A stretch of DNA of 63,709 nucleotides, the filler included, from Collodictyon triciliatum (taxonomy: Eukaryota): NCBI GenBank assembly GCA_043381765.1. It is 12 parts of 12 records of this genome, joined end to end, with 100 filler letters (N's around TTAATTAATTAA, not from the genome) between each part and the next. Parts side by side here need not be neighbours in the genome. Positions count along the whole stretch, not along the records: positions 10,885 to 16,224 come from JBHJMP010005283.1; 11 more parts are not named here. One strand, given 5' to 3'. A program made the position numbers and the translations under genes. Shown piece after piece: positions 11,097 to 16,324 of this stretch. Position 1 is the stretch's first letter; every line of letters starts with the position of its first letter. A model generated the notes under the pieces. That model had not been told where the DNA came from. It searched no databases and was given only the letters and a program-made list of their open reading frames with translations.

Positions 11097-13548
11097 ATCA
11101 ACTGGAGTGCATCTCTTCGAACTCCAAAGCACGTTGTTGATGAATGGGCGACTGAGCATGGATGCTCCTACTACGCAAGCGAGGAATACCAAAGTGACAT
11201 GGCTGCTGTTGAAAAGAGGATAGGTGACTAAAGTAGATGGACAGAGTCTATCAGAAGATGGTAAATTAGTACTGAATTTTTTTCTTCCCTCGACTACAGG
11301 TGTGCACGACCAAGACACCGTGTTCAATTCCAATAATTCCATGCTGAAGAACGGATGTGAGAGCCTTGGGTACAATCACATGGTCATTCCACGAAATGCT
11401 CCTGGTTCTCATACTTGCGGGTATGATTTTTTTTTTCTGCTTCTACCCCCTTTTTTTTTTCATATTGCAAAAATTTATGATTCCTGTAAATTATATCTTG
11501 AAATCGACCGGGTGTCCTGAAATAGATTCATATTATAATCATAAATTGACTTACATTGTATTATTCCCCTTCAAAAAATATATAAAGATTTTGTACTTTT
11601 GGATGAAAGTCTGGTGAAAAGCAAGGGTGTGTTGAGACTTGGCTAGCAGATGCAGCCAAGAATGGAACACAATTTCTTTTGCAAACTACTGTGCAACAAA
11701 TACTGCACAGTGAGGACATTGTTTTCATAATCATCGAAAGCACAAATGACTAAACAAAAAATAAATAAATTACAAGTAATATTTCGTCTTCGAGCTCAAT
11801 TCAGACTATTTTCTTAATTTACTCATCAACAAAATAGAGGACCAAAAGGTCACCGGGGTCTTATGCAAAAAAGATACTGGAGAAACATTTACTATCAAGA
11901 GCAAGTTTGTATTTACTTGTGCCAGCTCCTTGAACAGTCCGGCCATTCTTCTTCGTAGCAAAGTGCCAAACTCAAACATCGGGAAAAATTTGTATCTTCA
12001 TCCTGTATCAGCCATCACAGGTTTCTTCGACCAAAAAACACAGCCTTATGACGGTTGCCTCATGAGTGTCGTCTGCAAGGAGTTTGAAACAAGGTTGATA
12101 CCTATTGCGTTAAAACCCATGTCCACAGTTTCTACTTTGGTTCGCTATTTAGCGCCAGAGTCCTCGTTAACCCTTAAACACAGCATATTGGGATACTGTT
12201 ACATCTGAGTAATTGAGTGCTCGTGGTTGATTGTTGAATGCCATCACTTTTTTCATGAAAACAAAACAAAACAAAACAAAACAAAACAAAACAAAACAAA
12301 ACAAAACAAAACAAAACAAAACAAAACAAAACAAAACAAAACAAAACAAAACAAAACAGCGGCATCGCATTTTCTTCATCAGGCTTTGAATGGCCCAATC
12401 ATATTAATTTTTTTATATAAAAAACCATCATAGGCCGGAATCAAACTACGGCTGCCTGATTGAAACCCCTCCTGCCCACCCAGGGCTGTTTGCATCTGGT
12501 ACTCCATGGAAATCATCGCTGGAATTCAAGAAAGACTTGCTAGGCTACACAAATGCTGCTATATTCATTGTTATTACACGTGACAAATATGGTGGAGAGG
12601 TATGCAATTTGTGTATTTTCTTTACCAACAATATGTTTTCTCAACGTGATGTATATATGTCGCTAATATCAAAGTGATATTTCGTCTTATGTGAGTATAT
12701 ACAAGGTGAGAATCGACGGGAATGGAAATCCTCGATTTCACTATAATCTATCTGCAAATGACGCCGAATCACTGAAGATTGGGCTTGAAGGTGGCATTCG
12801 TATTATGGCGGCAGCAGGAGCAAAGTGAAGATTTTTTTTTTGGTGAATAAGTCCCCAAACTCTATATATCTAATTATTACTATTTTTTTCTAAAAATAAA
12901 TAAAATAAAATAAAAAATCTACAGGTCCATCCTCACACTGCACACATGCTACAATCGTTTTGATGCCGAGGGTGCTCCAGCTGCTCAGGGTATTGAAGCC
13001 TATGTCCAGCAAACAAGAGCTCTTTCCACAACGGTATACACTAAACTGTCTTTAAGCTTCGGTTGTCGCATATGTTTCTCCCTCACCATTGTTCTATCAC
13101 AAAATCTCAGTATTCGAGCATTTTTCACTCATCTGTTTCTTATATTCTTTTGTAAGGTTATCTACAGAACAAAAAATAATAATTAAAAACAGTAAAACAT
13201 TCATTAATGGTCATCTGTATTAGAGAATAAATTATTGTTTTTATTTAGATGTAAACTTAATTTGTGAATACATTTAATCATATTACTTTCATAACATAGC
13301 CCGGTTCGCTGTCGTTGTTCTCAGCCCATCAGATGGGGACTTGCCGCATGGGAAAATCACGAGAGACATCCGTGGTGAAGGAAAGTGGCGAATCCTGGGA
13401 TATCGCTAATCTCTATGTTGCTGATGCCAGTGTCTTCCCGACAGCAAGTGGCGCTAACCCCATGTTGACAACCGAGGCTGTTGCATACTCTATCGCAAAG
13501 CGCTTCGTCCAGGCCCAAAAGGAATCCGGTGCAACCGCATCCTCATAG
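11097..13548 (+). CDS. Long-chain fatty alcohol oxidase (GMC oxidoreductase), 5' partial, 8 exons visible, one in-frame TGA at 11604-11606
   Basis: Spliced product INWSASLRTP..EW, PRN..HTCGFCTFG*KSGEKQG..TWLADAA, LNSPAILLRS..IGKNLYLHPV, YGCLIETP, FSAHQMGTCRMG, LYVADASVFPTASGANPMLT; all intron phases consistent. Confidence 0.9.
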
Positions 13549-13865
13549 GGGAGTGCGTATGGAAAAAACAAGAAACAGAAACAGAAATAAAGATGCAAGC
13601 AATCAACAAAACTACGCAATCTTTTTCCAAGATAAAACAAACCAAACCAAACCAAACCAAAGCAAAGCAAAGCAAAGCAAAGCACTATCTTTTCATAATA
13701 ACTCAACATAACCATCGAAGGAGTTCTGTTAGAAAGAACAAACACATAAAACATACGAGGTGGATATCAAACTTTTAAAGATATATCGAGCATATGGCGA
13801 GGGGATTATATATTGATTATTCCTGGATGATTTTTTTTTTATCAGCTCTGAGCCGGCAGAGACTG

Positions 13866-14865
13866 CTATCGAATCTTGAGATATGACGGAGGGGCATAGT
13901 TCTTGTGCACATATTTAGCGATGTAGACAGGAAGGCAGCTCATGCTTGTGATGAGCAGAATTCTCCAGATGAACGCCCATGTTTGAATGAAGTTTATATC
14001 TAGAGAGATAGAGACGGTTTGTCGTAAAGTATAGTACTTTCTTCGGTCCATCTAGATGGCTAGAGAATTCAATATAAAACAAAACGGATCCTTACCAAAA
14101 TAGGTGTCCAGCAGAAACATGCTCGAAAAATATGCTGCCACAGATAATACTTCGCAATATACCATATAGCGATGCCATGTGTATATTTCCAAAGCCACAT
14201 TCAGTAGTTCAGTCAAGATGAGAACCGTATATGTGATTGCGACGATATTAATAAAGGCTGATTCGAACATTGTTATAGTGAGTAGCATGATGACTCCGCC
14301 TTGGTACACACTACAAAGAATTAATTTGAACAGGAGTTGCTTGAAAATGTTGAAGCCTCTAGGTCACATATCGTGTCAAGATTATACCTTTTAAAAACCC
14401 ATATGAAAAATGTTTTGTATGATAGCACGCGTCCCTATTTTCAATTGCGGAATCATCAATAAAGGGCTTTGGACACACATTAAAAAATTGGTTGATATAT
14501 TCTGGGATTCATTGGATCACATGTCTGCTGTGGAAAGGAAGGATGCCTCGTATGTTGCCATATATTTGATAGCGTGGTGTTACCTTCTGCAGGTCTTTAT
14601 AGAGTTCCGGATACATAAAGACAAGATGTCGACTGACGTCCTCATCAAGGACCAACGAAAATACGGGTGCCATCGTGTAGAAAGTGGCATAACTATTGGG
14701 AGATTGTTATACTGTAACTAACAGAGGGATGAAAATGAAGAAGATACGGAATACACACAAATAATCAATTAGGATAGTCACTATTATGGTCTTAAGACTC
14801 ACCCAACCATAATCCAGCCCTTTGATCAGACACAGTAGTATTAAATCATGAGTTAGATGCGACTT

Positions 14866-14916
<51 letters not shown>

Positions 14917-15351
14917 ATTAAGGTATTCTTTTCAAAAAATGAATAAGAATGTAAACAAACAGTTGAAATAATAAATGAAAATTGCAATACTAAAATGATT
15001 GAATAAAAAGAAATTGAAAAGAAGATCGAAAGGAATCTAAGGCAAGTACATTGTATATTGCCACTGCAGCAAAATAGTAGAGCGCCGTAAAAACGGCTTG
15101 GATAATCGATATGATGAGACCTCGATGAATCACAAATTGACTAAGGCGAGCCGAGCGTTTATCTAATATTTTAAGTGTTTATGTATGAAGAAGCAAATAC
15201 CGCGCAGAAAAAAAAAGTGAAAACGTATGCGTGTATTAAATGGGTTACATGAATTTCTGCCGTGCCATACTTCAAAAACCCAGAGGTGTTGTGGTCAAAT
15301 AGAAATGGGCATTGATGGGTTAATATTCGAAGAGAGAGGAAGACATAATAA

Positions 15352-15447
<96 letters not shown>

Positions 15448-16063
15448 ACACATAACAGGTTGTATTTCTATTAAAATGAATCAAGTACATATTAATTCGC
15501 TGATAAAGCTAAACTGGGTGACTGAGAAATCTGCAGCAAGAGACGCTTGCTTTCCTTCTTTACCAACAATTCCAATACCTTAAAAAAATCATGAGCATTA
15601 TTGAAAATCTTTATAAATAACCTAAGTAGACTTGAAATGGTAATACAAAATAGAGTATCCTCTGAACCATTCCCTTTTCACATTACATGGCCATGACTCA
15701 GATGTATGTGCCGAAATATAACAGACCGACATCGGCTGCCTGAATCATGGAAACATCGTTTCCACCATCACCTATGGCACAGGTTCGCTTCTGGGTGAAT
15801 GTCCTCAATAATCTGACAATATCAGCCTAGGAAAATGGTAAAGAGTGTCGAAACTTATGAGAAGGAAATGGCCAAAATGAATTGTATAACCACGCAACAT
15901 AAATACCTTTTGCGTCGGAGAGCATCTACAGCACACAACCGAAGGTGCTTTGCATGCAAACTCCACAAACATGGATTGAAAATACTTGAGGCATAAGGTC
16001 AAGGACACACCATCGATTATTAAGCAGGCTCCTGTTTTACGCCCGAAAGTGCTTAATTGCTCT
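13866..16063 (-). CDS. ATP9: P4-type ATPase phospholipid flippase, NEO1/ATP9 class (5' partial)
   Basis: [88 protein letters not shown]-terminal PPSYLKIR*. Confidence 0.93.
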
Positions 16064-16324
16064 CTAGTGAATTTTTTTTTTTTTTTTTTTTTTTTACAAA
16101 AAGGATATTACATGGATTGTTAAAGAAGCATGTGTATATAATAAAATAATCGCCAGTAGCCCCTATGATACATGTTCTATTATGATTTTGATTTTTATGG
16201 CCAAAAAAAAATAAATATGAATCANNNNNNNNNNNNNNNNNNNNNNNNNNNNNNNNNNNNNNNNNNNNTTAATTAATTAANNNNNNNNNNNNNNNNNNNN
16301 NNNNNNNNNNNNNNNNNNNNNNNN

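Follow-up and report, generated by a model that had tools for sequence, protein, structure and literature searches.

Does an in-frame TGA at a conserved cysteine of a protist oxidase gene encode selenocysteine (Sec), or is it simply a stop? The question is raised by a stretch of 63,709 nt from Collodictyon triciliatum (GenBank assembly GCA_043381765.1), referred to here as the window. Within it, the 3' part of a gene for a long-chain-alcohol (fatty alcohol) oxidase of the GMC superfamily is interrupted by a single TGA at 11604-11606, the position of the third cysteine of a conserved triad. An earlier reading of this DNA (the sequence-only reading) had put forward Sec insertion or Cys read-through, and had named a one-base nonsense allele or base-call error as the alternative. 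The analysis favours that alternative. The TGA is very probably an unrecoded change from TGY (where Y is T or C) in one of two paralogues, a reading that takes in a nonsense allele, a young pseudogene and a consensus error jointly.

The visible part of the gene comprises eight exons on the + strand with a total of 422 codons. Their phases fit and all introns are of the GT-AG type. The features of the locus are as follows, X1 and X2 being two public sequencing runs with contigs over the gene; neither is registered as RNA, but their splicing shows them to be RNA-derived.

10885-16224: the contig holding the oxidase gene (JBHJMP010005283.1), with linkers on both sides and sequence beyond them that is unrelated to the gene.
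11097-11223, + strand: exon A, the first visible exon, INWSASLRTPKH...EKRIG; GMC_oxred_N (PF00732), E 1e-09; splice joint 11223-11300 in X1 and X2.
11300-11420, + strand: exon B, ending ...PGSHTCG, with the first triad Cys as TGC at 11416-11418; splice joint 11420-11588 in X1 and X2.
11588-11709, + strand: exon C, FCTFG-TGA-KSGEKQGCVETWLADAAKNG..., with the second triad Cys as TGT at 11592-11594; supported by the gene model and the RNA joints.
11604-11606, + strand: the in-frame TGA at the third triad Cys position, placed by the frame, by the homologue alignment and by Cys222 of PDB chain 6a2u_B.
11838-12093, + strand: exon D, the end of GMC_oxred_N (PF00732), E 1.5e-10; splice joint 11709-11838 in the RNA contigs.
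12434-12599, + strand: exon E; a loose end of X1/X2 past 12094 matches its start.
12706-12824, + strand: exon F, aligned to the closest relative, P0001.
12925-13033, + strand: exon G, aligned to P0001.
13300-13548, + strand: exon H, with SAHQMGTCRMG and ADASVFPTASGANP, ending in TAG at 13546-13548; GMC_oxred_C (PF05199), E 3.7e-22.

The sole internal stop in the 422 codons is the TGA at 11604-11606, the natural stop being the TAG at 13546-13548. Exon B closes with ...CAT ACT TGC GG at 11420, the intron at 11421-11587 runs from GT to AG, and exon C continues from 11588 as (GG)A TTT TGT ACT TTT GGA TGA AAG TCT GGT GAA AAG CAA GGG TGT, which translates as G-F-C-T-F-G-stop-K-S-G-E-K-Q-G-C. The triad C-G-x-C-x-x-G-C is thereby left incomplete, with Cys 1 and 2 present and TGA as the third codon. 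Exons A and D score above the curated cut-off for PF00732. The sequence and the gene model thus agree with the sequence-only reading in the wording of the site (HTCG-FCTFG-TGA-KSGEKQG) and in the eight open, phase-consistent exons, which hold no further stop. Two splicing routes around the TGA were rejected. Use of the AG at 11608-11609 as an acceptor would skip the TGA and shift the frame, as had been pointed out before and as the sequence confirms, and a 17-nt micro-intron excising the TGA would be too short; neither joint occurs in the RNA contigs. Intron 4 contains an (AAAAC)n repeat of ~100 nt at 12258-12358.

The contig opens with a (CAATA)n microsatellite, and the 5' exons of the gene are cut off at that contig end. 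The anatomy given in the sequence-only reading stood, whereas its view of the surroundings required correction, in that the window consists of joined contigs and the 5' exons lie off the contig at 10885-16224.

The oxidase shares both Pfam domains, PF00732 and PF05199, with the long-chain-alcohol oxidases of plants, fungi and algae, and its best-named relatives (from Pycnococcus, Prymnesium, Kwoniella, Diversispora and others) bear this name in their source records. Unlike in full-length members, the FAD (flavin adenine dinucleotide)-binding N-terminal half with its GxGxGG fold is out of view, beyond the contig start at 10885. The invariant residues C346, C349, G352, K358 and H615 of a family profile built from 70 full-length members (A1) are all matched by the oxidase, H615 by the His of SAHQMGTCRMG in exon H; C353 is the TGA.

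A wider comparison was made with 274 fetched homologues, 189 of which cover the motif. Among these 189 the residue at the TGA site is Cys in 128, Asp in 48 and another residue in 13, while the flanks are G(-1) in 183, K(+5) in 183 and Q(+6) in 148. These counts bear out the family motif CGxCxxGCxxxxKxG, with the UGA at its third Cys, that the sequence-only reading had given. The triad C(-7), C(-4) and C(0) behaves in an all-or-none manner: 118 of the 189 homologues have all three, 54 have none and 17 are mixed. The Asp-type homologues, about a quarter of the set, are also without the other triad Cys.

Alignment of A1 to 6a2u_B placed the C-G-x-C-x-x-G-C motif on C213-G-n-n-N-C218-M-P-I-C222 (stretch 2, 27 bits, i-E 1.7e-05). 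In that structure, the catalytic subunit of the FAD-glucose dehydrogenase of Burkholderia cepacia (BcGDH), a 3Fe-4S cluster relaying electrons from FAD is held by Cys212, Cys218 and Cys222, according to PMC6719666. On that account the TGA position aligns with the 3Fe-4S ligand Cys222 of the catalytic subunit, whereas the first Cys, its spacing shifted by an insertion, aligns with Cys213 and not with the ligand Cys212. BcGDH-type enzymes also differ in working with cytochrome and hitchhiker subunits, which are absent here. By this profile alignment the TGA takes the place of a probable iron-sulfur (Fe-S) ligand, which lends backing to the earlier remark that a Cys-rich segment of this kind ligates an Fe-S cluster. 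We know of no Fe-S cluster in any long-chain-alcohol oxidase.

The closest protein, P0001, is a 684-aa open reading frame (ORF) from a Diphylleia rotans transcript in EukProt, with 57.1% identity over 408 aa; the next-best relative reaches 44.1%. P0001 resembles the oxidase in its local motif (HSCGYCTFG-C-KSGEKQGC) and in domain order, and differs in having Cys in place of the TGA. An identity of 57% marks it as a paralogue or another species' gene, not as the orthologue. A near-identical motif is found in a second oxidase transcript in X1/X2 (records 3 and 8; contigs of 449 and 1446 nt), whose alignment to 11598-11632 (35 nt) contains 4 mismatches. The flanks of this transcript, translated from its loose ends, read PGSHSCGYCP... 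and ...QTFLADAAV, and its codon at the TGA position is unreadable. Judged by its sequence, the transcript of records 3 and 8 is a P0001-like, intact-looking paralogue within the same organism. The occurrence of this second paralogous transcript in the same runs, together with the Cys of its closest relative P0001, argues for an unrecoded stop.

We favour a sequence of events in which a single TGY-to-TGA transversion would have struck the third Cys codon of H-x-C-G-x-C-x-x-G-C in one copy of a long-chain-alcohol-oxidase gene that has at least two paralogues in this organism. Translation would then stop after ~353 of ~685 residues, taking the closest full-length relative as the measure. As both the substrate-binding half and the C-terminal catalytic His lie beyond such a stop, no active enzyme would be expected from this copy, and the intact paralogue would presumably cover the function. 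The change would have to be young, because the rest of the 422 visible codons is undamaged. The sequenced strain or haplotype could carry a nonsense allele, the gene lying on a 5.3-kb unplaced contig; the change could mark a very young pseudogene; or it could be a consensus base error on a small unplaced contig.

How surprising is it that a chance TGA should fall on a conserved Cys? From the other 421 codons a nonsense codon can be reached by 159 one-step routes, 12 of them from Cys codons. Of these routes 42 yield TGA, and the same 12 from Cys are among them. Once the site is counted in, 13 of 43 one-step TGA routes start from Cys codons and 3 of 43 from triad Cys, and a random TGA lesion would accordingly fall on a Cys about 1 time in 3 and on the triad about 1 time in 14. 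As Cys codons provide ~30% of the gene's one-step TGA routes, a TGA at a conserved Cys is to be expected fairly often. Moreover, the case was picked out in the sequence-only reading on account of this very coincidence, which is weakly suggestive but not rare.

RNA contigs were aligned over 11097-12250. Runs X1 and X2 belong to one study and have all their differences from the assembly in common; they are counted here as one independent source. Contigs from both are spliced at 11223-11300, 11420-11588 and 11709-11838, with introns 1 to 3 removed exactly as modelled, and we conclude that the gene is transcribed and spliced in the manner of the model. Record 1, a contig of 556 nt, extends 356 nt past exon A, and given this extension there are probably further exons upstream. 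Against the assembly, the listed differences of X1/X2 are TGC>TGT at 11165 and CAA>CAG at 11672, both silent, and TCA>CCA at 11972 (Ser>Pro), from which it follows that they derive from a close but non-identical strain. A 218-nt contig from a freshwater-metagenome run (X3) is identical to 11911-12128, short of the codon, and a further run (X4) contributed three 34-nt pieces of low likeness, none over the codon. In record 7 of X2 (55 nt, at 11389-11418) exon B runs into a piece of exon H in reverse complement; this contig is an assembly chimera and not a splice form.

Among the rival explanations the one that survives best is that the UGA is decoded as Sec by means of a missed, divergent or unusually placed selenocysteine insertion sequence (SECIS), the Cys paralogue being the Cys counterpart. 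We consider this very unlikely. The observations that speak for it are, for the most part, those that weigh against an unrecoded stop, and they deserve to be set out together. The TGA falls exactly on a Cys that is conserved jointly with two partner Cys (in 128 of 189 homologues at the site itself), which is the classic signature of a Sec/Cys pair, and a relative or paralogue of the Cys type exists. Identity to P0001 is 54/88 (61%) before the site and 179/318 (56%) after it, with the other 421 codons intact; two other relatives give 44 versus 45% and 47 versus 43%. With identity after the site about equal to that before it, there is no decay in the downstream exons. Transcripts of the gene, correctly spliced, occur in two runs that differ from the assembly at 11165, 11672 and 11972. 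Two contigs, record 2 of X1 and record 6 of X2, span the codon, and the list of differences has no entry at 11604-11606. If the RNA codon is truly TGA, it can be neither a base error nor an allele private to one strain, and the stop has outlived some divergence. The SECIS searches themselves were of limited reach: Rfam E-values are multiplied over 4227 families and reach only ~12-17 bits, so that a divergent SECIS could escape, and our own scan, for the pattern UGA...AA/CC...GA with helices I and II, had no positive control. Finally, aquatic protists often retain Sec, and the closest relative comes from a freshwater flagellate.

Several of these points lose force on inspection. Undecayed downstream exons fit a decoded UGA and a young lesion alike, to judge from the sequence; decay cannot distinguish the two because the strains differ at only 4 of ~630 exon positions. 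The identity of the RNA codon is likewise unproven. Records 2 and 6 have two mismatches each, of which one is listed (11672) and the other is unlocated between 11588 and ~11624, a span that includes the codon, and for this reason the RNA contigs do not settle it. The list omits mismatches near the ends of aligned pieces: none of the 4-5 in each 34-35-nt piece (records 3, 8, 10 and 12-14) is shown. If differences near splice joints are omitted in the same way, one mismatch by the joint is the pattern expected of a TGY in that strain, and an unlisted TGA>TGY difference in the X1/X2 RNA is a live possibility.

The region in which a SECIS would be sought is bounded as follows.

13549-14054, + strand: the oxidase downstream region, at most ~500 nt before a convergent gene, with AATAAA at 13586-13591, 38 nt past the stop.
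14055-16224, - strand: C-terminal exons of a convergent phospholipid-translocating P-type ATPase (P4-ATPase), PF16212.

PF16212 matches the neighbour at 14055-14363 (E 5.4e-06) and 14512-14706 (E 1.5e-06). Because the P4-ATPase begins ~500 nt past the oxidase stop and the AATAAA lies at only 38 nt, there is little room for an oxidase 3' untranslated region. A (CAAAC/CAAAG)n repeat occupies 13636-13685 in the oxidase 3' region, and a T run of ~45 nt lies at 14870-14915 within the neighbour gene.

A check for SECIS had been proposed in the sequence-only reading, and it was run both with Rfam and with three pattern and fold scans of our own; no such element was found. At the gathering score Rfam returned 0 matches of any family over the whole window, and at E<=10 there was no SECIS among 5 matches in 13400-14400 or among 2 matches on the contig at 10885-16224. 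One match resembling a C/D-box snoRNA (snoU54, 13795-13858, + strand) scored 17.1 bits (E 1.9), below the gathering score of 35, and probably arose by chance. The pattern scan gave 0 candidates in 13549-14300, and in 13549-14100 none of 27 closable UGA/GA pairs passed. Extended to 13549-16224 it gave 4 loose candidates, all within the neighbour gene; two had a helix I of at least 4, which does not exceed the number in shuffled sequence (mean 2.6 over 30 shuffles). When four 3' stretches were folded, the z-scores ranged from -0.79 to +0.72. No tRNA was found within the 64-kb window, nor any tRNA-Sec by Rfam, although 64 kb is uninformative on the genome.

Nor was a Sec form of the family met with elsewhere. 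Not one of the 274 fetched homologues breaks off at this position. A metagenome scan for G-(TGH)-K-S-G-E-K-Q-G gave 11 matches and a prokaryote scan (one genome per species) for C-G-x-C-x-x-G-TGA-x-x-G-x-K-Q gave 16; all 11 and all 16 were chance matches outside any oxidase frame. The prokaryote pattern demands G(+3) and KQ, which makes that scan non-exhaustive. An orthologue of the gene was not found in searches with exons C, D and H. Exon C with the TGA read as C gave no candidate, exon D gave 6 matches (best, 48% identity), and the best 120 matches to exon H were headed by one of 75% identity over 70% of the 82-aa query. The search for UGA/Cys pairs among relatives, which had also been suggested, thus ended with no orthologue and with no homologue that has Sec or a break at the site.

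The residue replaced here is also of an unusual kind. The locus resembles eukaryotic selenoprotein genes in having an in-frame UGA at the homologues' Cys and coding conservation past it, and differs from them in that no SECIS was detected and no UGA orthologue is known. Sec in eukaryotes is usually found at catalytic redox residues and not at ligands of the 3Fe-4S type, whereas the residue in question is a putative metal ligand. By title and abstract, the literature linking alcohol oxidase with selenoprotein or selenocysteine held nothing relevant, and no paper was found in which GMC oxidoreductase is mentioned along with selenocysteine and SECIS. The terms GMC, choline and dehydrogenase do not occur in the main text of 'The algal selenoproteomes', although its supplementary lists could hold further families. 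Among the papers listed on CRuMs taxa, 'selenocysteine' has 0 occurrences. The proposal of Sec insertion or Cys read-through is therefore not sustained, with no SECIS downstream, no Sec form met with in the family and TGA otherwise absent from coding frames.

A second rival, which we hold to be very unlikely indeed, is leaky termination: the UGA would be a real stop at which a near-cognate tRNA (Cys, Trp or Arg) is occasionally accepted, yielding a little full-length oxidase and some selection downstream. UGA is the leakiest of the stop codons, near-cognate reading can insert Cys, and the downstream exons are indeed intact. Read-through is, however, favoured by contexts of the UGA-C or CUAG type, and the next base here is A (UGA-A). 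No structured element follows, although the folding left out 11607-11700, and a young mutation explains the intact downstream exons equally well.

A variant genetic code that gives TGA a sense meaning (Cys, as in Euplotes, or Trp) has nothing beyond the single codon to commend it and can be dismissed as next to impossible, because four long ORFs of the assembly (3318 codons) contain 0 TGA, 67 TGT/TGC and 48 TGG, so that TGA is not a general sense codon; the oxidase's 12 other Cys are all TGT or TGC; and TGA closes several stop-to-stop ORFs of at least 200 codons in the window. TGA is missing from the four ORFs even though, as a trinucleotide, it is as frequent in the window as TAA (2352 and 2323, respectively).

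As to the remainder of the window, it is a chain of unplaced contigs of ~5.34 kb that slowly shrink in length, the range being about 5344 to 5329 nt. Between them, every ~5440 nt, stand N44-TTAATTAATTAA-N44 linkers (at 5345-5444, 10785-10884, 16225-16324 etc.). As the stretch is a concatenation of unplaced contigs, those adjoining across a linker are not genomic neighbours. Microsatellites and homopolymers are dense, and contig ends coincide with such repeats, as does the start of the oxidase contig ((CAATA)n at 10885-10979). Matches to zf-RVT, the zinc-binding region of reverse transcriptases, occur in two ORFs on separate contigs, at 10043-10702 (- strand, E 4e-07) and 32597-33304 (+ strand, E 6.7e-05); the two are similar in sequence and are probably remnants of one family of non-LTR (long terminal repeat) retrotransposons. 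In an uninterrupted ORF of 1571 codons at 141-4856 (+ strand), a protein-kinase domain (PF07714, E 6.8e-07) is combined with a Sel1 repeat at the C-terminal end (PF08238, E 1.1e-07), and the GC content climbs to ~49% near the 3' end. An ORF of 618 codons at 35468-37324 (- strand) has a REJ domain (PF02010, E 1e-26) with a long (SQ)n repeat ahead of it. Leucine-rich repeats (PF13855, E 4e-18) are found in an ORF of 446 codons at 38721-40061 (+ strand), which runs on in frame past single stops; these interruptions are probably short introns.

Were the UGA in the oxidase gene decoded as Sec after all, the enzyme would be the first selenoprotein among the GMC oxidoreductases and long-chain-alcohol oxidases, and thus a new selenoprotein family. 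It would also offer, in a little-studied lineage of freshwater protists, a natural case of Sec taking over from Cys as a ligand of a putative 3Fe-4S electron-relay cluster, while the same cell has a Cys paralogue. To our knowledge, selenium at an Fe-S ligand position of a flavoenzyme is known nowhere in eukaryotes. With an unrecoded TGA as the favoured reading, the simplest view of the locus is that a duplicated oxidase gene has one copy that is damaged or mis-called, and it stands mainly as a caution on TGA/Cys matches. A by-product worth keeping concerns the family as a whole: the all-or-none Cys triad aligns with the 3Fe-4S ligands of BcGDH, and by this analogy the Cys-type long-chain-alcohol oxidases may carry an unrecognised Fe-S cluster.

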